DNA of 64,000 nt, from positions 2,133,263-2,197,262 of the forward strand of contig CAWCEA010000003.1 of assembly GCA_963794455.1 (NCBI GenBank). Reading direction: 5' to 3'. The translations under genes and the position numbers were made by a program. The notes beneath the pieces are model-generated. The model saw only the letters and a list, made by a program, of their open reading frames with translations. It had not been told where the DNA came from and searched no databases. How positions within the stretch are numbered: the first letter of the stretch is position 1; the number at the start of each line of letters is the position of its first letter. Source of the DNA: an uncultured Acidobacteriaceae bacterium (GTDB taxonomy: Bacteria > Acidobacteriota > Terriglobia > Terriglobales > Acidobacteriaceae). This document shows, piece after piece, positions 28,945 to 44,455 of the stretch.

Positions 28945-31353
28945 TTGATTACAATAGGAGTTTCGTCCGGCTACCCTTACCGGAGCCGTAGAGGGAAGAG
29001 GGACGATCAGCTTTTGGAAGAGACAAACCACAATTCCAGTCCGGCCCCCAGCGTTTACTGGCGGGTCGAAGGCAGCCTTCTCGACCTGACCGTCGTGGAG
29101 CCGGTGGCGTTCTTTACCTGGAACGCCCAGACCTTCGCTGAGCGCTTCCGGCGGCGCGGCCTCATCTTCTTAATGGCACTGCTCCGGCCATTTCTTTACT
29201 CCACGAATCGCAAGTTCGCCACGCGCGTGGTGCACACCGTTTTGCGCGGAGTTACCCGCGACCGCCTCGACCTGCTCGGCGAAGAATATTTCCAATATAA
29301 ATTGAAGCCGCGTCTGAAGCTGAGCGGCGTCGAGAAAGTACAGGAACTTGTCCGCTCCGGCGCCGAGGTCATTCTGGTCAGCCAGGGCTTGGAGCACGTC
29401 ATGCGTCCTCTAGCCCAGCATTTGGGAGTGAAGCGCATAGTGGCGAACCGCCTCGACTTCCGCGACGGCACCGCGACCGGCAGACTGCTCGAGCCCGTGA
29501 TTCGTCCGCGCGGCGCCTTTGCCCTCATTCGCGAGCAGAATCCAGACGGACGAAAAGCTCCGAAGACGTTGGCGCGGCATCTCGATATTTCTGTCGAAGA
29601 GCTTCGTTCCGCGGTCATCCCGGCGGAGCGGCAGGTCGCTGCACCCGCGCAGCCCATCGTTCACTTCGACGGTCAGCGCCAAGCACCTGGATTTTCCGTT
29701 CGCCGCGCATTCTCCGGCAAGCACGTGATGCTGGTCGGAGTCACCGGATTCATCGGCAAAGTCTGGCTCGCAAATACGCTTCTGGACTTGCCCGATGTGA
29801 AGCGGATCTATCTGCTAATCCGCAGGCAGAAGTCGAATCCCGCGGAACGGCGTTTCGAAAAGATGCTGGAAGAGTCGCCCGTCTTCGACCCGCTCTTCGA
29901 AAAGCACGGCGACGCCCTCGCCGACTTCCTGCGCGAGAAAGTCGAAGTCGTTGAAGGCGACGTAACCCAGCCCGGCCTCGGCCTTGTGCCCGACACAGCT
30001 CGCCGCCTGCAGAAGAATCTCGACCTGATCGTCAATAGCTCGGGATTGACCGATTTCAATCCCGACTTGCGCGACGCGCTCACCACCAACACCGACGCGC
30101 CGCTCAATATCCTCGAATTTGTACGCACTTCCGACCACGCCAGCCTGCTGCATCTTTCCACTTGCTACGTAGCTGGAGAGCAGGATGGGCGCGTCGGAGA
30201 GAAACTGGTCCAGAACTACAATCCGCGCGGCTTAGCCGACTTCGACGCCGATCGCGAATGGAATGCTCTGCACGAGTTAGTCCGCCAGGCCGACGCGCAA
30301 TCCGAGAGCGAAGAAGTCACCTCCGGCCTCCGTATGCAGGCAATGGCCAAAGAACACGCGGCGAAAGGCTTGCAGGGCGCGGCTCTCGACAATCAGATTC
30401 GCAAAAACCGCGTCCGCTGGTTGAAGACCTACCTCACCGAGGCCGGGACTCGCCGCGCCAAAGAACTCGGTTGGCCCAACACCTACACGCTCACCAAGAG
30501 TCTTGCCGAATCGCTCATCGCGAAACGTGGCGCCGGACTGCCCGTCGCGGTCGTTCGTCCCGCGATCGTCGAAACCTCCGTCGACAAGCCCTTTCGCGGA
30601 TGGAATGAAGGCATCAATACCTCCGCCTCGCTTTCCTATCTGCTCGGAACCTATTTCCGCCAGTTGCCTTCGAACGAAAGCAAGCGCCTCGACATCATTC
30701 CCGTAGACGCAGTTTGCGGCGGGATGACTTTGATCGCCGCCGCCCTCATGGAACGCCGGCACGATCCGCTCTACCAGCTCGCTACCTCTGTGACCAACCC
30801 GTGCGATATGGGACGCTCCATCGAGTTGACCTCGCTCGCTCACCGCAAGCACTATCGCGCGCAGGAGGGGCTGGAATCATGGCTGCGCCTGCGTTTTGAC
30901 GCGATTCCCGTTTCCAAGACTCGCTACAACCGCATGTCGGCCCCGGCGCAGAAGGCAATCGTAAAATCGATTCAGCGCATCATGTCGCCGCTGCCCTTGA
31001 AGAAAGCGCCGCTGGTTAAGACCGAGCGCAGTCTGGAACGTCTGGAAAAACTCATCGAACTGTTCGAGCCCTTCATCCTGCTCCACGAACATGACTTCGC
31101 CGCTGAGAATATCGAGAAGCTTTCGTACGCGCTTGTGCCGGAAGAAAAATCCACCTTCGCCTACGACACACGCTCGCTCGACTGGTGGGAATACTGGATC
31201 AACATTCACATCCCGGCCCTGCGCCGCTGGACTTATCCTTTGATTGAAGGGCGGCCGCTCGAAGCGCGGCCTCCCCGCAACTTTCAACTCGCCCCCGCGA
31301 ATGGAGACGCCGTGAAGACCGGCACCAATGGAGCAACGTGGCGATATTCCTGA
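28945..31353 (+). CDS. HAD-IB-like domain fused to fatty acyl-CoA/ACP reductase (NAD_binding_4 / male-sterility type)
   Basis: N-terminal ~230 aa are HAD-IB-like. They are followed by [15 protein letters not shown] (GxTGFxG Rossmann), [20 protein letters not shown] and a FAR C-terminal domain. The start is TTG 28945 or TTG 29014. Confidence 0.7.
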
Positions 31354-32471
31354 CCGGGTCGACCGGATACATCGGCGCTCACGTGGCGTCCAATTTGTTA
31401 GAAGGCCACGGCGCGGCCCTGAACCTGCTCGTGCGAGCTCGTGATCCGCAGGAAGCGCAACTCCGCCTGTGGCGTGCCTTGCAGCTGCATCTGGAATTTC
31501 CGCGCTTCTTTGAATATCTCCAGACCAAGGTGCGTATCTTTTGCGGGGACCTGACCTCGCCCGGTTTCGGTCTCGGCCGCGATGAGTATGATCGCCTCGT
31601 TCACACCACGGATTCCGTGATCCACTGCGCCGCGTCGCTCAATCGCAAGTCGGAAAAGAGTTGTCTGAACGTGAATCTGCGCGGCACACTCGAAGTGCTC
31701 ACGCTGGCGCGGCATGCCGAGCACTATCACGGTCTCCGCCGCTTCAGCGAAGTCAGCACCGTGGCCGTCGCCGGCAAGCGCAGCAACGAGATCGTGACGG
31801 AAGATCGCTCCATCGAATGGGACCGCTCCGACTACGATCCCTACGCCCGCACGAAGAAATTTTGTGAGCACATGACGCGGGTGCTCCTTCCGGACACGCC
31901 AAAGACTGTCTTCCGTCCGAGCATCGTTCTCGGGGACAGCCGGCATGCTGAGACAACCCAGTTCGACATGGTCAAAGCCTTCGTATTTCTGGCGGGCCTG
32001 CGCGTGCTGCCGTTTCGCCCCACCGACAAAATCGACATCGTGAATGTTGACTTCGTCGCCGACGCGATCGCGACTCTTCATCAGAAAGACCAGCCGAAGT
32101 TCGATACGTATCACCTGTCTTCGGGAACTTCCTCGCAAACGTTCCGTGAACTGACGACCGCCCTCGCATCTGCACAGCAGAAGCGCAGCCCCTTGTTCTT
32201 GCCCTTTGCCGAAAAGCCGTTCGCCGGATCCGTGAACTTCCTCTCAAATCGCAGTGGATCGCTCGCCCGCGGCGCCTCGCTCCTGAAAGTATTCATGCCC
32301 TATCTGGTGTGGAACACGGTGTTCGACAACACACGCGTCACCGCCGAGCTCGGGCAGAAGCCGGTTCCGTTTTCGCAATACAGTTTCCCGCTGTTGAAAT
32401 TCAGCCGCGAAAATAATTTCGAATACAAGTACAAACCGTGGCCCGCGGCCGCCGGAGGTACCGCCGCATGA
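31338..32471 (+). CDS. SDR-type thioester/acyl reductase (NAD_binding_4-like)
   Basis: [13 protein letters not shown] Rossmann motif and IHCAASLN. The GTG start overlaps the upstream gene by 16 nt. Confidence 0.65.
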
Positions 32472-33877
32472 TGGACCTTATCTTGGAGGCGTGGGTCAGC
32501 AGCAACATCGAGCGCGCCAAAGCTGGATGGATGCTCGGGGCAGGGAAGCCCTGGCAACCGGGCGAGAAGCTCAAGCTGCTGTTTGCCGGCTACAACGGCA
32601 CGCGCAATATGGGTTCAGACGTGCGAGTAGAAGAGATGCTGCGGCAGATTCGCCACATTCTCGGAGCCGAACGCGTCGACTTCACCGCGATGACCTTCGA
32701 CTTCGAACGCTCCAAAGGATATTTCGCAGAGACGGCTCAAGTTCGCCTGCCTGATATTTTCCCGCCATTCTTGTCAGATGAAGTGCCGCGGCATCACGGA
32801 GTGGTCGCCTGCGAAGGCTCCATGTTCAAGAGCAAATTCGCCAACGCCCTCACGACCATGATGATCGGCTCTCTGGGCATTGCCGCCGCGCAGAACAAGC
32901 TCTCCGTAGGCTATGGCGGCGAGGCGGGCCACATGGATCCCCTGCTCGCGAAGATGTGCGCGCGCTATTGCAAAGACTCGCTCGTGATCACGCGCAACGA
33001 AGAGTCCCGCACCGTGCTCCGCGAACTCGGCGTCCCCACCGAGTTGGGTACGGATACTGCCTGGACGTTTGAGCCGCGCTCCGCCGAGTACGGTCAGAGC
33101 GTCTTGCGGCAAGTTGGATGGGACGGCCGCACTCCGATACTAGTCGTCTGCCCGATCAATCCCTTCGAGTGGCCGGTGAAGGCCTCTGTCGCGAAACTTG
33201 CGTTGCACAGCACGGTCGGCGCCTATAAGAAGAGTCACTATCGTGGGCCCTACTTCCACAACGCAGGTCCGGCCGCCGATCGCGCCTACGAACATTACCT
33301 CACCTCGATCGCTAACGCCGTCGACGCATTCCGCAAGCAGCGTAGCGTCTTCGTCATCCTCGCCGCGACCGAGCGCCTCGACGCTCGTCCCGCGAAGCGC
33401 ATCTCCGACAAACTCGGCGGAGTGCCGATCCTCACCTCCGACGAATACAACATGTACGAACTCGTTAGTATTCTGCGTTCCTGCCACATGATGGCGTCGT
33501 CGCGCTATCACGGTATCGTGACCTCCATGCCGGCGCTCGTGCCTTCAGCCGGCATCACCATGGACGAACGTATTCGCAACCTCATGCGCGAGCGCGGCCA
33601 TCAGGAATTACTGATGAACGTCGACGACGCCGACCTCGAACAGAAGTTACTCCTTGCCCTCGAAACGCTGGCCACGCAAGGCGAGCGCATTGCCGACGGC
33701 ATAGCACGCACCGTTGTCAGGAACTTAAAAGTCATGGCGCGGATGGGCGTTTATTTTGAAGAGGAATTGCAGCGCCGCTATCCCGCATTCCCAACGCGCC
33801 AGGGCGAATGGAGTTGGGAAGATTACCTGCCGCCCATGAACGCCTCGCTGCGCCAGTTGGTCGCGGCCTACAGCTGA
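32468..33877 (+). CDS. polysaccharide pyruvyl transferase family protein
   Basis: [13 protein letters not shown]-terminal motif and SSRYHGIV C-terminal motif. ATG 32468 overlaps the upstream stop (ATGA). Confidence 0.6.
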
Positions 33878-33900
33878 TTCCGGCTTTCCGGTCCTAAACC

Positions 33901-35566
33901 ATGCCATTTGTCGGCGACATATTTTCGCAACTCAAAGCGGCTGCAGACACCGTCGTTCTGCAGGAAATCCGCGAAGGCCAAGTCACAGGAGTCACGGGCC
34001 AACAACTCCTCGACCTGATCGCCAAGGCGCGAACTTTCCTTGCCTCGAAGGGACTGAACAAAGGCGACCGCTGTGGAGTTGCTTGCCGCCAACAGCATTC
34101 GCTGGATCGCCCTCGACCTCGCAGCCATGGCCGAGGGGTTGATCGTTGTCCCCCTATATTTTCGCCAGGCTCCTGCTGAGTTGATCGCGATGATGAAAGA
34201 CAGCACTCCGTTATTACTCTGCTGCGGTGATGTCGCGCTGCGCGATGCAATTCAGCAGAACTGGCCCGCGGTAAACAAAGCTGAAATGCCACCGCAATTT
34301 CTCTTCGACGAGATTTTTGCCGGCGCCGACGGAGTCGCACTCGATCGCCCGCAAGTCCGCGACGCCGACCCCGTCACCATCATCTACACCTCCGGCACCT
34401 CCGGTGAAGCCAAGGGTGTGGTGCTGACCGCGGCCAACGTAGGATTCATGCTCGGCTGCACCTCGGCGCGCCTCGACTCGCTCATGGGCGGACGCTCCGG
34501 GCAAGACAGCATCTTCCATTACCTCCCGTTCAGTTTTTGCGCATCATGGATCGCCGTCCTGACGTTTATTCTTCGCGGAAGCCTGATCACGTTGAACACC
34601 GATTTGACGAGGATTGCGACTGACATGCCTGCGACCGCTCCGCACTATTTCCTCAACGTGCCGCAGTTACTTGAGCGCATGAGACGAGCCGTCGACGATC
34701 AGATCGCCCAGAAAGGCGGCATTGCCCAGGCAATTTACTCGCGAGCAAAAGACGCCAAGATCCGCGAGAAAGAGAAGCATCCGCAATCGACCGACGCCAT
34801 CTGGCTCTGGCTTGCGAATTCTCTCGTCTTTCCCACGATTCGCAAGAAGATGGCCGGTGAAAATCTGAAGGCCCTCATCTGCGGATCTGCCCCGCTCACG
34901 CAAGAGACGCAGGATTACTTTGCCATGCTCGGCATTCCCGTGCTTCAGGTCTACGGACTGACCGAGACCACCGGCATCTGCACGATGGACGATCCCCAAA
35001 ACCCGGCGCCCGGACGCGTCGGCCCTGCGATTCCTGGCATCGAGATGCGACTCGGAGACAACGACGAAATCGTCATCCGCGGCCCCAATGTTTTTCCGGG
35101 ATATTGGAATCGTCCCCAGCAAACCGCCGACGTTCTGCGCGACGGATGGTTTCACACCGGCGATCAAGGGGAAATGGACGCCTCCGGCAACTGGCGCATC
35201 GTTGGCCGACTCAAGAATCTGATCGTCCTCGGCTCGGGCCACAAGATCGCTCCGGAAACCGTCGAAGAAGAAATTGCGCGCCATTTGCCGGGAACGCCGC
35301 AAGTCGTTGTCGTAGGCAACGGCCGTGGATATCTCTCAGTGATCGTGACGGGAAGCGCGAGCGATGAACAAGTGCAAGCCGCGCTCGATGCGGTCAATCC
35401 GCACCTTCCGCACTACAAGCAAGTGCGAGCCTTCGTCGTGCGGCAGGAGCTTTTCTCCATCGAGAACGGCCTACTTACGGCGAACGGGAAATTAAAGCGC
35501 GATCTAATCTCGGCGCGCATGAAGAGCGAAATCGAAGAAATGTATCAAGTGAAGCAAGCAGTCTAA
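33901..35566 (+). pseudogene. long-chain fatty acid-CoA ligase (AMP-binding), split by a +1 frameshift near 34063..34076
   Basis: ORF 33901..34179 encodes a typical ligase N-terminus up to LASKGLNKGDR. ORF 34073..35566 continues with ELLAANSIRWIALDLAAMAEGLIVVPLY, then YTSGTSGEAKGV and GWFHTGD. Confidence 0.8.
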
Positions 35567-35576
35567 GCACTAGTTT

Positions 35577-35629
35577 TTCTTCGCGTCCTTTGCGAGGTTT
35601 TCTCAGCGACCTTTGCGATAAAGGGTTTT
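35577..35629 (+). repeat. CTTNGCG-phased intergenic repeat, family 2, copy a
   Basis: TTCTTCGCGTCCTTTGCGAGGTTTTCTCAGCGACCTTTGCGATAAAGGGTTTT. Confidence 0.6.
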
Positions 35630-35690
35630 GGAAAGCGCAAAGCAGGCCCATGGCTGCTAGAAGGGAAGCATCGGGAAATTCAAACTGCGC

Positions 35691-36494
35691 ATGAAACAAT
35701 TTCAAGGCAAAACGCTGTCCTGGGACCTGAAAGACGGCGTCATCGAACTAGCACTCCACCGCGAGCCCTGCAACGAATTGGGATCGCTGTCGCTCGAGGA
35801 ACTCGAGCAGTTCGCGTCCGCCCTCGACGATCTTGAACCAGAGGCTCATGCGCTCATCATCTATAGCGAGTTGAAGTCCGGCTTTTGCGCCGGTGCCGAC
35901 CTGCGTGAACTGTACGAGCGCGCGCAGTCAATGGAGAAGGCGCAGGCGACGCGTGGTGTCCGCGACTTTCTCGAACGCATTCACCGCGTCCTCAATCGAA
36001 TCGATGCCGCTGCGGTGACCACAATCGCCGCGGTTCATGGCGTGACATTCGGTGGCGGCTTTGAACTCGCCTTAGTCTGCGACCTCATCATCGCCGACAA
36101 GCTTGCCCGCTTTTGCTTTCCCGAACTTCGACTGGGCCTGATCCCCGGATTCGGCGGAATCCCGCGCCTGAAGCGCGATCTCGGGAACGCCGTCGTTCGT
36201 GACCTGCTGCTGACCGGCCGCAGTTTCAACGCCACGAAAGCCCAACAGATTGGTCTAGTGAGTCAAGTTGTGTCCGAAGGAGAGGCGTTGCGTGCCGCGC
36301 GAGCTACGGCCGCGCAGCTAGCCAAGTTCGACCGTCGCACCGCAGCAGCGGCCAAACGGTTCATCAAGCCCATTCCGCACGAAGAACTGCGCAAAGAAAT
36401 CGACCTCTTCTGCGAACTGTTTTCGTCGCCCGCGGTCGAGGCCGGCCTGAAGAAGTTTGTAGAGAGCACCGACGCTCAGCCGTATTTGCCATAG
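35691..36494 (+). CDS. enoyl-CoA hydratase/isomerase (crotonase) family protein
   Basis: FCAGADL, VHGVTFGGGFELALVCD and ELRLGLIPGFGG oxyanion-hole motifs. Confidence 0.85.
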   Translation: MKQFQGKTLSWDLKDGVIELALHREPCNELGSLSLEELEQFASALDDLEPEAHALIIYSELKSGFCAGADLRELYERAQSMEKAQATRGVRDFLERIHRVLNRIDAAAVTTIAAVHGVTFGGGFELALVCDLIIADKLARFCFPELRLGLIPGFGGIPRLKRDLGNAVVRDLLLTGRSFNATKAQQIGLVSQVVSEGEALRAARATAAQLAKFDRRTAAAAKRFIKPIPHEELRKEIDLFCELFSSPAVEAGLKKFVESTDAQPYLP

Positions 36495-36519
36495 TCAATC
36501 TGAATTAGAATAACTGCTT

Positions 36520-36762
36520 ATGGAAACAGCTGAAAAAACTCTGGACGAAATACTCACGCTCGCCGCGGCTCACTTCAAAGTGCCGCGCGAAAAGCTCTCG
36601 CCCGACGAAGACTTCTTCAAGGCACTGGGCATCGACAGCCTGCAAACGCTCGATTTGTTGACCAAGCTGGAGAATCATTTCCGGGTCGAGTTGCCCGACT
36701 ATGAACTCCAAGGCGTGACCGATTTCCGTACCTTGGCCGCGAAAATTCAAGCGCGGCTGTGA
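36520..36762 (+). CDS. free-standing acyl carrier protein
   Basis: 80 aa with the phosphopantetheine attachment motif LGIDSLQTLDL. Confidence 0.8.
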   Translation: METAEKTLDEILTLAAAHFKVPREKLSPDEDFFKALGIDSLQTLDLLTKLENHFRVELPDYELQGVTDFRTLAAKIQARL

Positions 36763-36843
36763 AAGATGGCTCGCAATTCCAGCACGAGATGTCTTTGAAG
36801 CTTGGAGTGAGTTTGGGCGAGTAACGAATTGATAACTAAAGCA

Positions 36844-36882
36844 TTTCTCTGTGCCTCCGTGGCTCTGTGGTGAAATAGCGTC
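36844..36882 (+). repeat. family 2 repeat, GTG variant
   Basis: TTTCTCTGTGCCTCCGTGGCTCTGTGGTGAAATAGCGTC has the same phased CTnnGTG/GCG layout as 48244..48286. Confidence 0.4.
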
Positions 36883-36885
36883 TTG

Positions 36886-38595
36886 ATGCTCGATCTCCGC
36901 CAATACACTTGTCTCGGCGCCGCGCTGCGCGATGCGCTTGAGCGCTTTTCCGCACAGACCTGCCTCATCGAGGCCGATCGCGATCGCGAAAAAGTTCGTC
37001 TCACCTACTCCGATTTCAAAGAGATTGCGTTGCCGCTTGCCCGCGCCCTCGAAGACGCCGACTTCGACGCCGGCGACCGCGCCGCCATCATCATGACGAA
37101 TCAGTCGAAGTGGCTGATTTCCGCCTACGCGATCTTCTACTCTGGCGGCGTCCTCGTTCCAATCGACTACAAGCTCACCGCCGCCGAGCACCTTCAACTG
37201 CTGGCGCACTCGAGATCCAAGGTGCTCGTTGTCGAGTACCACCTGTGGCGCGCCATCATGCAGGCTCCCGATTTTCAGAAGATCGGAACCAAGATCGTGC
37301 TTGTCACGGAAGCCCCGCTAGGCGCGGATTTGGCCGGGGCCTTCCGCTGGGAAGATTTCAAGCGCAAGGGCGCTCCCGACTTCGTCATGCGCCAGAAGGA
37401 AGACGTCGCCTGCATCGTCTATTCTTCTGGAACCGGCGGCCGCCCCAAGGGTTGCGTTCTCACGCATGAGAACTATCTCGAACAATGTCGCTCGCTCACC
37501 GCGTGGTATCCCTTCTGGCCGGGAGTGCGCTACCTGAGCATCCTGCCCACCAATCACGCCATCGATTTCATGGTCGGCTTCATTGGTCCATTCGTCTGTG
37601 GAGCCTGCGTCGTGCATCTGCGCACCCTGCGTCCCGAGTTCGTTCGAGACGCCTTCGTCCGTTATCGCATTACTTACGTAGCGCTGGTTCCGATGATTGT
37701 TAAGAATCTGGAACGCGGCCTGCGCGCGAAGTTCGACGAACTGCCGTCGTGGAAGCGGGCCTTCCTCAACACAATGATCGCGACCAACCGTCTTTTGACG
37801 CGCGGCCATCCCAGAGTGAAGCTCAGTCGCATGCTGCTCGGGAGCGTGCACCGCGGTTTCGGCGGTCAACTGCTTGCACTGATCACAGGCGGCGCCTTCA
37901 TGGAGCCGTCGACCATGCAGTTCTTCTATGATCTTGGCATTCCCGTGGTCAACGGCTACGGCCTAACCGAGGCCGGAACAGCTCTCACGCTCAACGACCT
38001 CAAACCATTTCGAGCGGATACCGTCGGCAGGCCGCTGCCCGGGGTCGAACTGCGCATTCTGAATCCCGACGCCGACGGCATCGGAGAAGTCGCCGTCAAC
38101 AGCAAAACCGTCATGTCGCATTACCTCGACGATCCGGAACTCACGCTTGAAACCATCGTCGATGGCTGGCTCCTGACCGGCGATCTCGGCCGCTTCGAGC
38201 GTCACGGCCATCTTCAGCTCTTCGGACGCAAGAAGAACATGATCGTCACCGAGGGTGGCAAAAACATTTATCCCGAGGACATCGAAACTGTTTTCGACGG
38301 TATGCCCGTCAAAGAGTACAGCGTGTTTGCGACGAATTACATTTGGCCGCAGAAGGAACTCGGTCGCGAGAGTCTCATCGTTGTCTTGCGCCTCGAACAA
38401 AATCAGAAATTCGACGACAAGCTGCTCGAGGAAATTTCCGTGCGCAACCGGCGCCTGCCCGACTTCAAGCGGGTCGCGGGATATTTGATCTGGGAGAAAG
38501 ATTTTCCCCGCACCGCCTCGATGAAAATCAAAAGGCAGGCGTTGGCGGAAGAAATCGGTAAATCGGTCGAGCGGGCCGCAATCGTGGGATTGTGA
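36886..38595 (+). CDS. AMP-dependent synthetase/ligase (fatty acyl-AMP/CoA/ACP ligase)
   Basis: [29 protein letters not shown] and a C-terminal TASMKIKR. Confidence 0.85.
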
Positions 38596-38654
38596 TCCGC
38601 CGCTGAATTGGCGCTGGCCGCAGCACGCGCTCGCAAATCAGCCACGCGGGCAGA

Positions 38655-39590
38655 TTGCAAATCACCAAAGTGAAACAGGTTCAGAACTTGGGGCAAAACT
38701 ATCTTGCGATTGTGAATCCGGCGGCAGGAGGCGGACGCAGCCGCAAACTCCTCGGCCCGGCCTTGGCTCGCTTGCAGGCGGGCGGCATCGAAGTGAAGGT
38801 CGCCCTGACACACGCGCCAGGTGACGCCACGAAAATCGCAAGCGACGCTTACGCCCGCGGCACGCGGAACTTCATCGCCGTCGGCGGCGATGGCACTTCT
38901 TATGAAATCGTGAACGGCCTCTATCCGCAGGCTCTGACCGGCGGGCGTCCCACCCTGGCATTCCTCCCACTCGGTACGGGCAATTCTTTCCTTCGCGATT
39001 TCAGCGATCGCGGCGTCGAACACGCCATCGACTCTCTCCTGGCGCAAAAGACTCGCCTGTGCGACGTGATCCGCCTGCGCCACCGCGAAGGCGTGATTTA
39101 CTTCATCAACCTCCTGAGCATGGGTTTCTCGGCCGACGTCGCTACCCTGCGCGCTCGCCGCTTCAGTTCCTGGGGAGAACTCGGCTACATCATCTCCATC
39201 TTCCTCACTCTGGCGCGCTTCAACCGGCGCTCGTTTCCCGTTCGCACCGGAGGCCAGACCGACTTCGACAGCCGTCGCTGCCTCTTCCTCACTTTCAACA
39301 ACAGCAAGTACACCGGCGGCACGATGATGATCGCCCCCAAGGCCGAGATCAACGACGGCCTCATCGAGTACGTTCGTTGGGGACCGATCGGGCGCTTGGG
39401 GTTGATCCGAAATTTGCCGGGTCTCTACGACGGCACGCACATTGAGCACCCGCTGGCCGAGCGCAATGCCTCGCCGCGAATCGAGTTCAAACTGGACGCT
39501 CCCATCGACGTCATGGTGGACGGCGAAGTGCTCACCCTGCACTGCGAGGAACTCGACGTACTTCCCGCGGCGCTCAGTGTTGTCCTCTAA
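38655..39590 (+). CDS. diacylglycerol kinase-family lipid kinase (YegS/BmrU type)
   Basis: IVNPAAGGGRS, IAVGGDGTSYEIVNGL and PLGTGNSF. Confidence 0.8.
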   Translation: MQITKVKQVQNLGQNYLAIVNPAAGGGRSRKLLGPALARLQAGGIEVKVALTHAPGDATKIASDAYARGTRNFIAVGGDGTSYEIVNGLYPQALTGGRPTLAFLPLGTGNSFLRDFSDRGVEHAIDSLLAQKTRLCDVIRLRHREGVIYFINLLSMGFSADVATLRARRFSSWGELGYIISIFLTLARFNRRSFPVRTGGQTDFDSRRCLFLTFNNSKYTGGTMMIAPKAEINDGLIEYVRWGPIGRLGLIRNLPGLYDGTHIEHPLAERNASPRIEFKLDAPIDVMVDGEVLTLHCEELDVLPAALSVVL

Positions 39591-39613: not shown

Positions 39614-40036
39614 ATGTCTGAAGAGCGACGAAAGCGCCAGCAGGAACGCGAAGGCAGTTCCGCCGATGGAAAAATGAAAAACATCCTGATGTACGGGGGC
39701 ATCGTGGTGCTTCTTGCCGTTGCCTATTACGCCGGCTGGCACTACAAGAATCATAAATACGATGCCTTCGCCGAGTGCCTCGCCACGAAACACGCCAAGA
39801 TGTATGGACTCTACTGGTGCCCGCATTGCATCGAGCAAAAAGAAATGTTCGGTAAAGCCTTTCACTACGTCCCCTACCAGGAGTGCGCGATCAAAGGTTC
39901 ATCGGAAATGGCTCCGGAGTGCAAAGTCGCCGGCGTGAAATTGTTTCCCAGTTGGCAATTTGGATTGGATCCGCCAAAAGAAGGCGTTTTGTCTCTGGAA
40001 GCTTTGAGCCAGAAGACCGGGTGCAGCCTGCCATGA
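39614..40036 (+). CDS. membrane-anchored thioredoxin-like protein (VKOR partner domain)
   Basis: One TM, then AKMYGLYWCPHCIEQKEMFG (CxxC), a second Cys pair and the PSWQF motif. Matches the Trx-like domain fused to VKOR in other bacteria. Confidence 0.7.
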   Translation: MSEERRKRQQEREGSSADGKMKNILMYGGIVVLLAVAYYAGWHYKNHKYDAFAECLATKHAKMYGLYWCPHCIEQKEMFGKAFHYVPYQECAIKGSSEMAPECKVAGVKLFPSWQFGLDPPKEGVLSLEALSQKTGCSLP

Positions 40037-40497
40037 CTGCCGCGACAGCGTTGCCCTCCAAGTCGCCCGCCCGTCATCGCGTCCTGTTCGCAATCATCGC
40101 CGTGCTCGCGCTCGCGGGCGTCGTCGATTCAGCCGTCGCACTGCAGCGCCACTACGCGAAGTCAGCGACCGACTTTTGCGATTTCAACCAGAAGTTCAGC
40201 TGCGACATCGTGAACCGTAGCGAGCAGTCGACCCTTGCTGGAATTCCTGTCGCGGCGATCGGCGTCGCGGGCTACGCCGTTTTGTTCGTCTTATCGACCA
40301 TCTGGAAGGCGCGTTCCGATACGCCCCTCCGCCTCCTGGCTGCGAGCCTTGTCGGATTAGCCTTCGCACTCTATCTCACCTATGTCGAAGCCTATGTCCT
40401 CGACTCCTGGTGCATTCTGTGCCTGACATCGCTCGGTCTGATCTCTCTCATCAGCGTTCTCGCCATCGTGCTGAAGGTCCGGGACGCCAAGGCATGA
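40033..40497 (+). CDS. vitamin K epoxide reductase (VKOR) family protein
   Basis: ATG 40033 overlaps the upstream stop (ATGA). Loop cysteines CDFNQKFSC and active-site WCILC in a 4-5 TM protein. Confidence 0.8.
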   Translation: MTAATALPSKSPARHRVLFAIIAVLALAGVVDSAVALQRHYAKSATDFCDFNQKFSCDIVNRSEQSTLAGIPVAAIGVAGYAVLFVLSTIWKARSDTPLRLLAASLVGLAFALYLTYVEAYVLDSWCILCLTSLGLISLISVLAIVLKVRDAKA

Positions 40498-40536
40498 TCG
40501 GCTGCGTCGTTGTATCCTGATAGGGCTCTTTTCCGG

Positions 40537-41391
40537 ATGGAAGAAATCCAAAAAACTGAAAAGCAGGGACCTGGGATCGTCTCCAGCGTCATCCGCGCCG
40601 ACCATGCCACGGGAGACCTGCGTCTCCACGAATTTCGCAGCCGCATTTTTCGTAACAGCCGATTCCTGCGGGTGTGGCTGCCTCCCGGCTACGACGATCC
40701 CGCCAACGCTGGCTTGCGTTATCCGGTCTTCTACTTGAATGATGGGCAGAATCTGTTCGAGCCCGAGACCTCCTTCACCGGCGTCGAGTGGCAAGTGGAC
40801 GAGACCGGGGAGCGCCTCATTCGTGAAGGCAGAGTTCCTCCTATGATTTTCGTCGGCCTCGACAACGCCAGCAAAGATCGCATTCGCGAGTACATGCCGC
40901 ACCGTTCCCTGAATCCCATGATGTTGCGTGTCTACGGCAGTCGCTATCCGAGCTTCTTGATCAAAGAAGTCATGCCCTTCATGGCGCGCACCTACCGCGT
41001 CGCGACTGGGCCCGACAACACAGGCCTCGGCGGATCATCTCTGGGAGCGCTCATCGCCCTCTACACCGTGTCCGTGTGCCCCGGCGTGATCGGCCGGTTG
41101 CTCGTCGAGAGTCCATCATTGTGGGCGTCGAACCGGCAAATCATTCGACAGAGCCGCAGCGTCCAACGCTGGCCCCTTAGAGTTTTCCTTGCGGCCGGCA
41201 CAAACGAAGCAGGAAGAAAAGACAAAGATCAAAGCGTGGTCGATGATGTCCGTGAGCTAGCCGCGATCCTGCGCCGTGCCGGACTCGACGAGAAACGCCT
41301 CCGACTTGTTATCGAAGAAGGAGGCACGCATCACGAGTCCGCGTGGGCCCGACGCTTCCCCGAAGCGCTGGCGTTCTTGTTCGGAAAATAA
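40537..41391 (+). CDS. esterase family alpha/beta hydrolase (enterochelin-esterase-like)
   Basis: RVWLPPGYD, YPVFYLNDGQNLF and the nucleophile elbow GLGGSSLGAL. Confidence 0.7.
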   Translation: MEEIQKTEKQGPGIVSSVIRADHATGDLRLHEFRSRIFRNSRFLRVWLPPGYDDPANAGLRYPVFYLNDGQNLFEPETSFTGVEWQVDETGERLIREGRVPPMIFVGLDNASKDRIREYMPHRSLNPMMLRVYGSRYPSFLIKEVMPFMARTYRVATGPDNTGLGGSSLGALIALYTVSVCPGVIGRLLVESPSLWASNRQIIRQSRSVQRWPLRVFLAAGTNEAGRKDKDQSVVDDVRELAAILRRAGLDEKRLRLVIEEGGTHHESAWARRFPEALAFLFGK

Positions 41392-41431: not shown

Positions 41432-41473
41432 CTCTTCTTTGCGTTCTCAGCGTCCTTAGCGTTTCAAGCTTTT
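41432..41473 (+). repeat. family 2 repeat, copy b
   Basis: CTCTTCTTTGCGTTCTCAGCGTCCTTAGCGTTTCAAGCTTTT. Confidence 0.55.
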
Positions 41474-42702
41474 CGCTCGTTGACCGAAGACTCAGGAGCG
41501 GCGCTGATAGCCCAAATCACCCACACTCCCGCCACCATAGCCACAACCGTCAACTGAACATGCGTCCACCGCGCAAGCGGACCCACTAGCGGCAACATAT
41601 AGATCAGATACAACAGAATTCCCAACCATCCACTAGACGCGGTCCGTACTCCGGTCGCGAGCCAATCAGCCAGAAGAAGAAATGCCGGCGCCAGGATCAC
41701 CAGATCGTAAACCGTGAGATGCGGTGCAACCAGCACCGTCGCTAAGAGCAGGGAAGAATACCGTAATGCCAACGGGACACTCTGCCCGCGCCTCCAAACC
41801 GCAATCGCCAGCCCGAGCGTGACACAAGCGCTCAGAACATATAACCCAAGAGCGAAATCATGCGAGGGCACGATCATCGACCAAAATGTTCGCAACGAGT
41901 AAGTCTGATAAGGCTTCGGTTCGAGCAGCGGCAGAATCGTGCGCGAGTTCCACAGCAGGTGCAGCCACTGCCGTAACGGTTGTAACCCGTAACAAAGAAC
42001 TCCCACAATAAGCTGCGCACCCGCCGACAGAACCGCTCCAACCACAATCTTCCCAGCTCCAATCGCCACAAAAGCAATCGCGGCCGCCAGCCCCAACTGC
42101 GGCTTAAAGATGAGGCAACCAAGCACCACCCCAGCAAGGAATTCCCGTCGATCGCGCAGCAGAAAGTACATCAAGGAGAAGCAGGCCAGCGCGAGAGCCG
42201 ATGTCTGTCCCCACGCAATCAAATGAAAGAATGCCGGAAACGCCGCCGCCACAATAAGAACCGTTCCACCGTGATCCCGCAGGTTCGGACACGCCCGCCA
42301 AATGCCGTAGCAGCAGACCCCATAAATTGCCGCGCTGAACCCCCACCACAAAGCCAGCGCCCACCCATACGAAAGTCGCGCCAGCGGCGCAAACAGAACC
42401 GAAACCTGCGGCGGATAGAGCGGTAAATATCGAATGCCGGTAGCCTCTGGCACTCGCCGAGCAGCGAGTGCCGCCTGCGCGTTCATGTCATACAAATCCG
42501 CGCCGCGATGTTCGACCGCCAATGTTCCCAGCGTATAAAAATGCAGAAAATCCGTGCCCTTGAGATTGCCGCTCCGATCGCGCAGCCCTGGCGTTGCCAA
42601 ATTCCATCCGTACACCAACCAAAGGCACAGTGCGAGAATCGTTGCATGGGCTCGCAAGCGCCTGGCAGTAAGCCAACTGCTCGGATTGCTCGTGATCGCC
42701 AT
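41464..42702 (-). CDS. polytopic membrane glycosyltransferase-like protein (GT87/DUF2029-like)
   Basis: 412 aa with more than 10 TM segments and an N-terminal loop motif GNLKGTDFLHFYTLG. Confidence 0.55.
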   Translation of the reverse strand: MAITSNPSSWLTARRLRAHATILALCLWLVYGWNLATPGLRDRSGNLKGTDFLHFYTLGTLAVEHRGADLYDMNAQAALAARRVPEATGIRYLPLYPPQVSVLFAPLARLSYGWALALWWGFSAAIYGVCCYGIWRACPNLRDHGGTVLIVAAAFPAFFHLIAWGQTSALALACFSLMYFLLRDRREFLAGVVLGCLIFKPQLGLAAAIAFVAIGAGKIVVGAVLSAGAQLIVGVLCYGLQPLRQWLHLLWNSRTILPLLEPKPYQTYSLRTFWSMIVPSHDFALGLYVLSACVTLGLAIAVWRRGQSVPLALRYSSLLLATVLVAPHLTVYDLVILAPAFLLLADWLATGVRTASSGWLGILLYLIYMLPLVGPLARWTHVQLTVVAMVAGVWVIWAISAAPESSVNERKA

Positions 42703-42742
42703 GTCGTGGGCGGGACAATCAGCTTGAAGACGATATCAGTAT

Positions 42743-44455
42743 TTATTTCGCGGAGAGCGCGTTGCCATAAGGTTCAAGCTTCGGCGAAGGATCATCGGCA
42801 GCAATCCTCCAAGCTCGACGATCTTTGAAATAACGTAGCACTTCTTGATTGTCGTTTTCGCCCATATCGCGCGCCCACACGATTTTCGCCGTATCGATCG
42901 ATGCCTCGTTCCAGACCCACTCCCGATCGACATCGTGCGGGACACCGTAGCGGACAAATACCAGTTGGCCACCACTAAGGCGGCGAAGTTCGCGTACCTT
43001 GGTGGCTCTTTCCAGATTTCCACGCGGCCAGTCTGGCTCGATGTGGGTATTGGTCGCGGCCGCCGTAACGCGCAACAGAATCATGGCGCAAGCGAGTAAT
43101 GGGATAGCTCGAACGACAGAAAGGCCAATCGCGCTCCCCCGTCTGCGCCACAACCGTAGATGGCGCAAGCCCTGTACGAGAACAATGTAGAGCGCGCACG
43201 CGAATGGGGAAAAGTAGTGCGGGAACGTCCAGGTTTGGACTGCAAAGCCGGCCATGATTACACCGCACAGCGTGAGCGGCAGAGCCAGTTTCCTCTGCCG
43301 GACGATCCAAGGCAGCGCAAGCAAAGGCAGGGTTAGAAGCGGGCCCAGATAGAATAGCCACCAAATCTCAATCTTGTCCGCCGCTCGTTCAACGTATCCT
43401 TGGAACGTTAAGTTCCGTTCGAACTCGCCCAGTTCCCAGCGGTAATAATCGCGCATCACGGCATGGTGATATTCCGGCTCCGGACGTGGCTTTTGCCAGA
43501 TGAAGTATGGGGCCATCGCATACTGATTCCGATCGACCTGATACGTCATCTCGACTGGAGATCCGGTGACGCGATCGTAGTACCATGCCATCATCAACCC
43601 ACCGAGTAGAAGTACGGCAAGCACCGGGAATACCACGCTCGACAATGCTTGCTTTAGCGGCGGATGATTCCGCCCGGCTAACCAGAACAACATGGCGAGT
43701 GCCATGGGAATCGCGAAAACGAATCCCTCGTAAGGGCGGCTGTTCGCCAGAATCAACAGCCCCCCTGCAAAAAGCAGAGCATTGCGCAAAGATGGTCTCT
43801 TGCGCAGCCGTGGCCACGCGCCCAACACCAGTGCTCCCCCCAAGGCCGCCACCGAAGCGCACCAGTAAGTGTTCATCCAGTAACTGAGAATCCCCAGTCG
43901 TAACACCGCCAGCACTCCGCCGAGCAGCGCCCACCTCGGTGTCAGCCAGCCCTGCAGCATCCAACACAGCGCCGCGCACATCGCAGCGGTAATGAGCAAT
44001 TGTCCGATCCAGGGATGCCCGAGCAGTTTCCCCGCGGCCAGAACCAGCCCCTGCGCGGGAGGATACATCGACATATAGGTTGGCCGTTCGATGAAGTCGA
44101 AGCCTTCGAAATGAATCCACATCGGATGAGTCGGATTCGTGACCCTTCCGTGAGCGAATGTGTCAGCGGCCAGAAGGTAGCTGAACTCGTCGTTCCATCG
44201 GGGCTCCGGGACCCCCAGTGCTGGGATGAACGTGACTCGTATTACGACCACGCTCGCTCCAACCGCCACTATGGATAGCCACTTTCGTCGCGCCAGGCGC
44301 CGTAAACTACGCTCCACCGAGCCGAAGGCCGAGGTCTGTTTGCGTACTGACCTTCGCCGCTCAGAAAGGACAATGAGCAACCCCGCCGCGCTCATCAAAA
44401 CGAATTCAATGATCGCAAGCGAAAAAGGCGCAAGCCGGACGTAGATGTTCTGCAT
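42743..44455 (-). CDS. polytopic membrane protein, GT-C (ArnT/PMT-like) glycosyltransferase candidate
   Basis: 570 aa. First-loop acidic motif [14 protein letters not shown], many TM segments and a soluble C-terminal domain. Confidence 0.45.

Follow-up and report, generated by a model that had tools for sequence, protein, structure and literature searches.

A conserved eight-gene operon in an uncultured Acidobacteriaceae bacterium combines a pyruvyl-transferase-family enzyme with fatty-acyl activation and reduction enzymes and may direct the synthesis of an unusual lipid

The analysed window, a 64,000-nucleotide stretch of a contig of an uncultured soil Acidobacteriaceae bacterium, contains eight co-directional genes on the forward strand, designated g1 to g8. 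All of the domains that an earlier note, made from the sequence alone, had claimed for them were recovered with Pfam and NCBIfam, and its overlaps of 16 nt (g1/g2) and 4 nt (g2/g3) and gaps of 23, 25 and 59 nt agreed with the coordinates. Two further gaps were absent from that note, 124 nt between g4 and g5 and 120 nt between g6 and g7; both contain repeat elements in this genome. No wax synthase gene is present among the eight genes or their immediate neighbours, and no published description of the operon was found in the literature.

The first gene, g1 (29014..31353), encodes an alcohol-forming fatty-acyl reductase that carries a fused HAD-IB-like domain at its N-terminus (HAD, NAD_binding_4 and Sterile in Pfam; TIGR01490 and TIGR01746, partial, in NCBIfam). 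Its longest reading frame opens at 28945, while the length of its relatives, 779 aa, supports a start at 29014. The second gene, g2 (31338..32471), encodes a stand-alone thioester-reductase-type SDR (NAD_binding_4, E=4.9e-41), which scores 125.9 bits against TIGR01746, under the cut-off of that model, and shares a median identity of 82% with its relatives. The GxxGxxG and YxxxK signatures are intact in both proteins, as GVTGFIG and YTLTK in g1 and GSTGYIG and YARTK in g2. These signatures and the NAD_binding_4 and Sterile domains are common to g1 and the alcohol-forming fatty acyl-CoA reductases of the FAR1/Maqu type, from which g1 differs by its fusion to a pseudo-HAD domain. In this domain, motif I has RxEG in place of DxDG, and the change is kept across phyla, including in the free-standing HAD proteins of loci L081 and L086. 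Lacking the nucleophile, the HAD-like domain of g1 is therefore probably non-catalytic or differently employed.

The third gene, g3 (32468..33877), whose ATG overlaps the stop codon of g2 (ATGA), codes for a 469-aa pyruvyl-transferase-family enzyme (PF04230, PS_pyruv_trans; 33.7 bits, cut-off 25.3). Its AlphaFold model (pLDDT 92.5) matched GT-B enzymes in Foldseek, the best matches being generic GT-B proteins. Like CsaB, WcaK and Pvg1, g3 scores above the gathering threshold of the family and has the two-domain GT-B fold and the conserved SSR-x-H motif; however, NCBIfam matches to the CsaB and WcaK models are partial, with equivalog scores far under the cut-offs, and at the sequence level the solved structure of Pvg1 gave no significant match (E=2.5). 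No glycosyltransferase, flippase or sugar-nucleotide genes were found near g3. The protein is matched by 240 representative clusters at E<=1e-30, and its identity to relatives (median 83%, minimum 80%) has the highest minimum among the enzymes of the operon. In some lineages it is fused to other members of the set: to a ligase-1-type domain in P0182/L087 and to the Sterile domain of the reductase in P0135/L088, where the NAD domain lies upstream in the same frame with a single stop codon between. These fusions to a reductase or a ligase indicate that g3 is central rather than accessory.

The fourth gene, g4 (33901..35566), encodes a FadD11/ACSL-like acyl-CoA ligase (AMP-binding and AMP-binding_C_3 in Pfam and NCBIfam), hereafter ligase 1. 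In this assembly it is split by one extra base near 34076-34078 relative to loci L001, L005 and L007: frame 1 holds the first 57 codons, and from 34073 onward the body is read in frame 2. The base is likewise absent from contigs that cover this position in two other soil metagenomes, so that an assembly error is the most likely cause. The protein encoded by g5 (35691..36494) is a crotonase-family enoyl-thioester hydratase (ECH_1, E=1.8e-43); alignment with M. tuberculosis EchA8 places both catalytic glutamates in the segments GGGFELAL and FPELRLG, giving a canonical hydratase site and a likeness to ordinary enoyl-CoA hydratases. A dedicated 80-aa acyl carrier protein (g6, 36520..36762; PP-binding, E=6.4e-12) carries the serine motif GIDSL and has a median identity of 86% to its relatives. 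It is followed by g7 (36883..38595), a second adenylate-forming ligase (ligase 2; AMP-binding, E=2.8e-66) with, like ligase 1, an intact YGLTE motif. Ligase 2 adjoins the ACP gene in every locus having both, except L100 and L102, in which no ACP was called in the tblastn map, and the two genes overlap in L081, L083, L085, L086 and L088; ligase 2 is therefore probably the ACP loader. Together with the ACP and g2 it resembles a split carboxylic acid reductase of the A-ACP-R kind, but both this set and the FAR-type reductase here sit among a pyruvyl-transferase-like enzyme, a crotonase and a kinase. The kinase, g8 (38655..39590), belongs to the YegS/DAGK family of lipid kinases (DAGK_cat and YegS_C; TIGR00147, 132.6 against a cut-off of 118.65) and has an intact GGDG motif.

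Of 80 species-level Terriglobia genomes, 58 carry the complete set of g1 to g8 in colinear order; in each of the other 22, several of which have the region on short or cut contigs, one or more of the genes had no qualifying match. The same gene order occurs in a Myxococcota MAG (L081), with the HAD domain as a separate gene, and the core running from the transferase through ligase 1, crotonase, ACP and ligase 2 to the kinase is present in Planctomycetes (L083), Pseudomonadota (L085) and "Ca. Acidiferrales", as well as, in the same order, in many of the 80 metagenome loci. The flank upstream of g1 is variable, and the conserved unit therefore begins at g1. Co-conservation across relatives, which the earlier note had proposed to check, is thus borne out. 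The gaps of 120 and 124 nt with their repeat elements could suggest genes that are unrelated and only happen to lie side by side on one strand, but the colinearity, its spread over at least four phyla, the overlapping stop and start codons and the gene fusions contradict a chance neighbourhood, which has a negligible probability. The eight genes form a real operon, in an arrangement far beyond chance, and its carriers are almost only uncultured bacteria. Across the sampled Terriglobia genomes its inheritance looks vertical and its conservation high. Transcript evidence is limited to two small contigs, both from a single run that can only be guessed to be RNA. Downstream, a thioredoxin-like protein, a VKOR and a PF00756 esterase (39614..41391, forward strand; Pfam) recur at about 60-67 of the 80 loci from Terriglobia genomes and are absent from L081, L083, L085 and L086; this set is an operon neighbour only within Terriglobia and lies outside the cross-phylum core.

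Several variants of the operon exist. Ligase 1 is missing from L088, L103, L108, L109 and L132, which have the order transferase-crotonase-ACP-ligase 2; the crotonase is missing from L086 and L087, and the kinase from L086. In seven loci (L083, L085, L094, L095, L132, L140 and L142) a PlsC gene directly follows the kinase, which implies that the kinase product keeps a free hydroxyl, like lysophosphatidate. Two of these, L140 and L142, are of the acidobacterial type, and the L142 protein has relatives that bear the name 'Ca. Acidiferrales'.

On the comparative evidence, there is about an even chance that the operon makes a precursor of a fatty-alcohol-derived phospholipid, with the pyruvyl-transferase-family enzyme acting on a lipid hydroxyl in a PEP-dependent reaction. 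The product would probably be an unusual fatty-alcohol-based, possibly ether-linked, phospholipid made by an undescribed route. In such a route, the acyl-CoA formed by ligase 1 would be reduced to a fatty alcohol by the FAR domain of g1, and g3 would couple the alcohol with the C3 unit of PEP to give a lipid carboxylic acid. This acid would be re-activated as a thioester and transferred by ligase 2 to the dedicated ACP, or, in the fused variant, re-activated by the ligase-1-type domain. The thioester could then be modified by the crotonase and reduced by g2 to an alcohol, which the YegS-type kinase would phosphorylate, before acylation by a PlsC. Sister lineages encode this enzyme within the operon; here a housekeeping PlsC would presumably take its place. 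The logic proposed in the earlier note, in which a chain is activated on CoA or ACP, reduced, coupled and phosphorylated, fits the comparative genomics, although the locus is not an elb locus. The fit of enzymes to steps is retrosynthesis and not evidence, and the data are compatible with more than one assignment of the ligases and reductases. To our knowledge, members of PF04230 have been shown to catalyse only the formation of ketals from two hydroxyls, the one lipid case included, and we know of no precedent for enol-ether release in a fold of the g3 type. This ketal-only precedent counts against the route, as do the variants without crotonase or kinase.

The leading specific version, which we put forward tentatively, is a route to 2-O-alkylglycerol phosphate. 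The product of g3 would be an alkyl enolpyruvyl ether (2-alkoxyacrylate), whose thioester would, like methacrylyl-CoA, carry a substituent at the alpha position of an acryloyl group and could be hydrated by the crotonase to a 2-O-alkylglyceroyl thioester. Reduction would give 2-O-alkylglycerol, and the kinase and PlsC a 1-acyl-2-O-alkyl analogue of phosphatidate. Among the Pfam-annotated genes of the annotated loci, none codes for an acyl-CoA dehydrogenase; the enoyl substrate of the crotonase is therefore not made by the operon, unless it is the transferase product. Locus L132, lacking ligase 1, retains two reductases, the kinase and PlsC, so that each enzyme would be used exactly once in the proposed route. 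In its favour, lipids of the 2-O-monoalkyl glycerol ether type do occur in bacteria (PMC5552659). Cultured Acidobacteria counter this version, their described ether lipids being ester- or 1-O-alkyl-linked and not 2-O-alkyl.

The main rival to the 2-O-alkylglycerol route is a ketal on a lipid diol. The earlier view that described lipid pathways offer no obvious place for the pyruvyl-transferase-like protein is partly outdated, since DxpH, a 477-aa PEP-dependent pyruvyltransferase of the dioxanopeptin cluster of Chitinimonas koreensis, installs a pyruvyl ketal on the 1,3-diol of a lipid tail in vitro with PEP as donor (PMC12964715 and its supplement). DxpH and the pyruvyltransferase of the mgp cluster share the Pfam family and length class of g3, the acceptor of DxpH is a hydroxylated lipid chain and not a sugar, and its C-terminus, LVARYG as read from a published primer, resembles the ends of members of the g3 clade. 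A sister clade of g3 (about 35-41% identity) occupies NRPS/TE/TPP/PKS clusters of the dxp/mgp type, such as L089 (MbtH, thioesterase, PPTase, transferase, TPP enzyme) and L084 (TPP enzyme, transferase, PKS), near which DxpH was placed from context, length and termini only. DxpH is, however, a late lipopeptide tailoring enzyme forming a 1,3-dioxane ketal, whereas g3 is central in an operon of ligases, reductases and a kinase and is followed by a ligase that would re-activate its product. In the ketal route, hydration of a trans-2-enoyl thioester by the crotonase would give a 3-hydroxyacyl thioester, a reductase would give an alkane-1,3-diol, and g3 would form the PEP-derived pyruvyl ketal (a 1,3-dioxane carboxylate) in the manner of DxpH. 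Activation, reduction and phosphorylation of the carboxylate could then yield a single-chain ketal phospholipid or a ketal acid. We consider this rather unlikely. It agrees with the only lipid chemistry shown for the family (PMC12964715), with the contexts of the sister clade and with the canonical site of the crotonase, and it too accommodates two activations and two reductions. Yet its enoyl substrate would have no source in the operon, and a dedicated hydratase would duplicate the housekeeping one. The gene order also puts the hydratase after the transferase, not before it. Reduction and phosphorylation would leave no free hydroxyl for the PlsC of the seven loci, and L132 would have no substrate for its kinase, its PlsC and one of its reductases unless ligase 2 acts twice.

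Another reading compares the operon with elbABCDE of Myxococcus xanthus, in which ElbD combines reductase, ligase, ACP and acyltransferase, ElbB is HAD-like, and ElbA and ElbE belong to the NAD-dependent epimerase family (PMC9131029, PMC13012113). Both systems include a HAD-IB-like part, a FAR-type reductase, an adenylating ligase, an ACP and NAD-dependent SDR reductases, lack a condensing enzyme and presumably begin with reduction of a fatty acid to an aldehyde or alcohol. The likeness to elb suggested earlier thus holds for ElbB and parts of ElbD. However, the parts are here separate genes, with the HAD fused to FAR instead of free-standing, and the acyltransferase is paralleled only by the PlsC/AGPAT-type genes of sister loci, the window having none. 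With no fused ElbD, no ElbC-like gene and four core members foreign to elb as described (the transferase-like enzyme, crotonase, ligase 1 and YegS kinase; PMC9131029), identity with the elb locus was rejected. The ether-lipid role of elb is backed by genetics; for the present operon such a role is conjectural. That the operon makes ordinary 1-O-alkyl glycerol ether lipids, or fatty alcohols, in the way of elb, with ligase 2, ACP, reductase and PlsC as a split ElbD, appears improbable. All of the ElbD parts and an ElbB counterpart are represented (PMC9131029), and a preprint reports split elbD variants from Poribacteria and soil Acidobacteria as well as elb-like clusters that include DAG kinases and acyltransferases (bioRxiv 10.64898/2026.06.23.733905). 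The crotonase, ligase 1 and g3, which might not use PEP, would then be accessory or unrelated, against which stand the high minimum identity of g3 and its fusions. Moreover, all eight genes are assigned by Pfam and none is like the distinct ElbC-type protein, and the explanation yields little, the ether-forming step of elb itself being unknown.

Finally, the operon could belong to a specialised-metabolite or signal pathway, in which an NRPS-like ligase/ACP/reductase set would make a small molecule from a fatty aldehyde or alcohol, with pyruvylation as tailoring. Such stand-alone sets typify NRPS-like clusters, tailoring enzymes of lipopeptide clusters are the closest relatives that g3 has beyond its own clade (PMC12964715), and in both L085 and L102 a TetR regulator is encoded after the operon. 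This origin is very doubtful given the seemingly vertical inheritance and high conservation across the sampled Terriglobia genomes. Condensation, cyclase and export genes are not conserved with the block, and the lipid kinase and PlsC-type acyltransferase suggest phospholipid assembly instead.

The cluster at 28945-39590 consists of eight genes on the same strand (+), and Pfam and NCBIfam searches assigned to them the domains that had been read from the sequence in the earlier note. The first gene, g1 (29014-31353), encodes a 779-aa protein, of the same size in relatives, in which a HAD-IB-like domain is fused to a fatty-acyl reductase (FAR; NAD_binding_4 and Sterile domains). It is followed by genes for a stand-alone thioester-reductase-type SDR (g2, 31338-32471), a PS_pyruv_trans-family protein, hereafter the pyruvyl-transferase-like enzyme (PT; PF04230; g3, 32468-33877), a FadD11/ACSL-like ligase with an AMP-binding_C_3 domain (ligase 1; g4, 33901-35566), a crotonase (ECH; g5, 35691-36494), an 80-aa acyl carrier protein (ACP; g6, 36520-36762), a second adenylating ligase (ligase 2; g7, 36883-38595) and a YegS-type lipid kinase (g8, 38655-39590). 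The 16-nt and 4-nt (ATGA) overlaps and the gaps of 23, 25 and 59 nt reported for this cluster were all correct on re-reading. Two further gaps, of 124 nt (35567-35690) and 120 nt (36763-36882), carry repeat-like sequence; the former contains phased CTT-GCG units and a hairpin at 35579-35597. A scan for promoters and terminators was uninformative, with counts near the shuffled expectation. In one public run, whose RNA status was guessed, two small contigs match the window at 32341-32604 and 36945-37116 with at least 99% identity, one of them spanning the g2/g3 junction, which is too weak to demonstrate co-transcription.

The active-site motifs of most of the encoded enzymes are preserved. The reductase part of g1 matches NAD_binding_4 (178.7 bits) and Sterile (40.2 bits) in Pfam, and the GxxGxxG and YxxxK motifs are intact both in it and in g2. 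The crotonase aligned to EchA8 contains GGGFELAL and FPELRLG, with both catalytic glutamates, which we take to correspond to E144 and E164 of the rat enzyme, and the oxyanion-hole motifs. The ACP retains the DSL serine, both ligases retain YGLTE, and the kinase exceeds the TIGR00147 cut-off (132.6 versus 118.65 bits) and carries the GGDG motif within AVGGDGT. Comparison of the two ligases with the PDB and NCBIfam returned generic ANL matches alone (FadD13, MatB, FadD11), which give no clue to the substrate. The N-terminal domain of g1 matches PF12710 and the HAD-IB model TIGR01490, the latter below the NCBIfam cut-off, and its motif I reads RxEG in place of the DxDG of HAD phosphatases. This substitution does not vary between the Terriglobia and Myxococcota sequences (29014-29700 in the window, L081:6450-7130 and L086:6612-7298 in relative loci), so the canonical HAD nucleophile is absent in all of the lineages compared, and the domain looks like a conserved variant, either a pseudo-enzyme or an enzyme of different chemistry, rather than a product of decay.

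In the assembly, g4 is not a single open frame: codons 1-57 lie in frame 1 and the body of the gene continues in frame 2 from 34073. The break results from an extra base within 34060-34080, where the window has GGAGTTGCT and relatives have GGA-CTGCT. The extra base is missing from three close relatives, in which the frame is read straight through. Site-spanning contigs from two other soil metagenomes likewise omit one base at 34078; that of run X3 has at least 99% identity to the window, and that of run X4 is a close match differing at three bases. Most probably, therefore, the frame was broken by an error of the assembly or by a lesion private to this strain, the gene being presumably intact in the population.

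With g3 as the anchor, a scan of one genome per species returned at least 568 stretches encoding a g3 relative, and thousands of homologues occur in metagenomes. The best 80 of these stretches (L001-L080) are all from metagenome-assembled genomes (MAGs) of Terriglobia, labelled Ca. Sulfotelmatobacter, Acidobacteriaceae and similar. The grouping of the eight genes in the earlier note is borne out by their co-conservation, as all of them were found in 58 of the 80 loci and are colinear on one strand in every such case (58/58); in the remaining 22 at least one gene has no qualifying match, several of these loci being on short or cut contigs. Among the operon enzymes, g3 has the highest minimum identity to its relatives (80%), and its median identity (83%) is surpassed solely by the ACP (86%) and ligase 2 (85%). 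The operon is widespread, and it is strongly conserved in the dominant Acidobacteria of peat and soil.

The same arrangement was found in other phyla. A MAG of Myxococcota (L081) encodes the HAD protein as a separate gene and then FAR, thioester reductase, PT, ligase 1, ECH, ACP, ligase 2 and kinase in identical order. MAGs of Planctomycetes (L083) and Pseudomonadota (L085) have the run PT-ligase 1-ECH-ACP-ligase 2-kinase followed by a PlsC-type acyltransferase, and in L085 the genes of the operon are translationally coupled. A scan of metagenome contigs added 80 more loci with the same picture. In total, seven loci (L083, L085, L094, L095, L132, L140 and L142) have a PlsC gene after the kinase; two of them, L140 and L142, are of acidobacterial type, the relatives of the L142 protein being named "Ca. 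Acidiferrales". No PF01553 acyltransferase was found by Pfam in the window operon or its immediate neighbours, and tblastn with the PlsC proteins of L083 and L085 gave no match in the whole window or within 10 kb in L001-L080. Ligase 1 is missing from L088, L103, L108, L109 and L132, in which PT directly precedes ECH-ACP-ligase 2; of these, L132 retains both reductases, the kinase and PlsC. The crotonase is missing from L086 and L087. The former locus (L086:6612-16392) contains two ligase-2 paralogues and no kinase, with a MacB/FtsX-type permease gene downstream. No acyl-CoA dehydrogenase was found among the genes with a Pfam assignment in the annotated loci. All of the carriers found are MAGs or metagenome contigs, the one cultured exception being the cyanobacterium Leptothoe spongobia, which has a partial set. 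The L. spongobia set comprises the two reductases, PT and ligase 1; the ECH and ligase encoded upstream are weakly related, and a 74-aa ORF is not an ACP.

Two natural fusions concern the PT-like enzyme. In P0182 (967 aa; L087:553-3456) it is fused to a ligase-1-type domain, while P0135 (640 aa; L088:5754-8813) joins the C-terminal "Sterile" domain of FAR to PT, the NAD-binding part of FAR lying just upstream in the same frame with a single stop codon between. These fusions suggest that PT works beside a fatty-acyl reductase and beside a carboxylate-activating ligase. Both proteins match PF04230 better than g3 itself (33.7 bits, curated threshold 25.3), P0182 with 58.4 bits over profile positions 20-275 and P0135 with 48.8 bits over positions 1-278 of 280.

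The AlphaFold model of g3 (pLDDT 92.5, pTM 0.90) has a GT-B-like two-domain fold. Foldseek returned 240 matches at E<=0.001, and the best 50 listed are all GT-B-type enzymes save one complex I chain. It is a member of a distinct protein family with lengths of about 470-490 aa, of which 240 clusters, formed at 50% identity, match at E<=1e-30. R53, R176, D196, H348 and D366 are invariant, and an SSR-x-H motif is present. A sequence search of the PDB yielded one non-significant match, to Pvg1 (5ax7), so these residues are at most candidates for a PEP site. In a tree of representatives the operon clade stands apart from a large sister clade with support of 100/99. Two members of the sister clade have informative neighbours: that of L084 (2817-12960) lies beside a TPP-dependent enzyme and a PKS, and that of L089 (4443-8164) beside MbtH, a thioesterase, a PPTase and a TPP enzyme. 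On two short contigs the PT gene is directly preceded by a 215-aa ORF for which Pfam gave no significant match (L090:1216-1863 and L091:5197-5844), the PT of L090 being in the sister clade and that of L091 in a third, outlying one. In their arrangement the neighbourhoods of L084 and L089 resemble the mgp and dxp lipopeptide clusters, which were described in 2026 (PMC12964715). DxpH of the dioxanopeptin (dxp) cluster of Chitinimonas koreensis is a protein of 477 aa, adjoins the thioesterase DxpG, and in vitro forms a PEP-dependent pyruvyl 1,3-dioxane ketal on the diol of the lipid tail (PMC12964715). From just its length, annotation, thioesterase neighbour and primer-derived termini we infer that DxpH belongs with the sister clade; g3 falls in a different clade, well separated from that with the NRPS/PKS context.

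From the gene content, motifs, co-conservation, fusions and PlsC adjacency observed in these loci, we infer that the genes could form one operon for a single lipid route, a reading to which we give about even chances. A fatty alcohol would be made and joined by g3 to the C3 unit of PEP, the resulting acid would be re-activated as a thioester, which would be processed and reduced, and the new alcohol would be phosphorylated and, where PlsC is present, acylated. The version of this general reading that we favour, tentatively and with the chances still leaning against it, would pass through an enol ether and end in a 1-acyl-2-O-alkyl phosphatidate analogue. Here the alcohol and PEP would give a 2-alkoxyacrylate, the thioester of which would be an alpha-substituted acryloyl thioester, like methacrylyl-CoA, which is hydrated by an ordinary crotonase. 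Hydration by the crotonase would yield a 2-O-alkylglyceroyl thioester, and reduction, phosphorylation and acylation would lead to the phosphatidate analogue. This version is favoured because every enzyme acts exactly once in it, whether the operon has two ligases or lacks ligase 1; it also accounts for a dedicated hydratase without a dedicated dehydrogenase and for PlsC after the kinase, and fits the gene order PT-(ligase)-ECH. Monoalkyl glycerol ethers of the 2-O type occur in bacteria (PMC5552659). The fit of enzymes to steps is our own retrosynthesis and provides no support by itself. Two points count against the enol-ether version: to our knowledge, ketal formation is the sole chemistry shown for this fold, one lipid case included, and the ether lipids that we know from cultured Acidobacteria are not 2-O-alkyl.

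The main rival, which we rate as only slightly less probable, is a ketal route with biochemical precedent in DxpH. The crotonase would produce a 3-hydroxyacyl thioester, a reductase would convert it to a 1,3-diol, and g3 would cap the diol as DxpH does. This route requires an outside source of the enoyl thioester and offers PlsC no substrate; nor does it explain one reductase and the kinase in the loci that lack ligase 1. Under the enol-ether version, the g3 family would represent a new class of lipid enolpyruvyl transferases, which form an ether with a fatty alcohol and PEP as substrates. The other enzymes of the operon would then build the glycerol backbone around the ether bond, activating the acid as a thioester, hydrating it with the crotonase, reducing it and phosphorylating it; this assignment is doubtful at present.

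The earlier note had drawn a parallel with elb, the ether-lipid operon of Myxococcus xanthus. That operon encodes the HAD-like ElbB, ElbC of unknown function, the reductase-ligase-ACP-acyltransferase ElbD, and ElbA/ElbE of the NAD-dependent epimerase family (PMC9131029). The parallel stands for the shared reductase, ligase and ACP parts and, in other loci, the acyltransferase, and may also hold for the HAD-like part. It does not extend further, since a fused ElbD is absent here, the reductase, ligase and ACP being separate genes, and four conserved members without description in elb are added. The operon works partly like elb and is not a member of the elb family. The YegS-type kinase, ACP and ligase also brought to mind sphingolipid or ceramide-phosphoglycerate synthesis, as Caulobacter sphingolipid loci encode serine palmitoyltransferase together with an ACP, an ACP synthetase, a ceramide kinase and CpgC. 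This idea was rejected, as no aminotransferase-class serine palmitoyltransferase was found among the window ORFs scanned with Pfam and neither CpgA nor CpgC is related to g3, the former being PgsA-like and the latter lacking any conserved domain (PMC9393093).

A literature search found no paper describing this operon or PEP-dependent ether formation, and it was not until 2026 that the PF04230-type family of g3 was connected with lipid chemistry. The synthesis of non-canonical and ether membrane lipids in aerobic bacteria is only partly solved: we know of no assigned ether-forming step in the elb pathway, and the Ger/PlsA route is associated with anaerobes and facultative anaerobes. For iso-diabolic-acid lipids, the conversion of the sn-2 ester to an ether is an open question in the literature (PMC13274423). 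If g3 were an enolpyruvyl transferase, the operon would make sn-2 (2-O-alkyl) ether phospholipids by a route that tolerates oxygen and requires neither AGPS nor PlsA/Ger. Such a route would operate in abundant uncultured soil Acidobacteria and in Myxococcota, and could bear on the origin of the sn-2 ether bonds in bacterial di- and tetraether lipids. An ether made by g3 would mean a new ether-lipid pathway, and a ketal would define a new class of lipids headed by a pyruvate ketal; uncultured soil bacteria could gain a new biomarker in either case.

The genes upstream of the block, encoding MFS, gluconokinase and MBL proteins, were considered as members of the operon and ruled out. The MFS protein is of the galactonate-transporter type, the next gene encodes gluconokinase, and these genes are present beside the block in just 22-33 of the 80 genome loci, so that the conserved unit begins at g1. 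Downstream, genes for a Trx-like protein, VKOR and an esterase of PF00756 (39614-41391) are kept in about 60-67 of the 80 Terriglobia loci and are absent in other phyla, and are therefore treated as lineage synteny; we take the PF00756 'putative esterase' family to include mycolyltransferases. In two loci unrelated to each other, the operon is followed by a gene for a TetR-family regulator with a TetR_C_24 domain (L085:8443-9072 and L102:16436-17275). In the window, a GT87-family glycosyltransferase and a 570-aa protein without a Pfam or NCBIfam match are encoded on the opposite strand (41464-44455, -), converging on the cluster.
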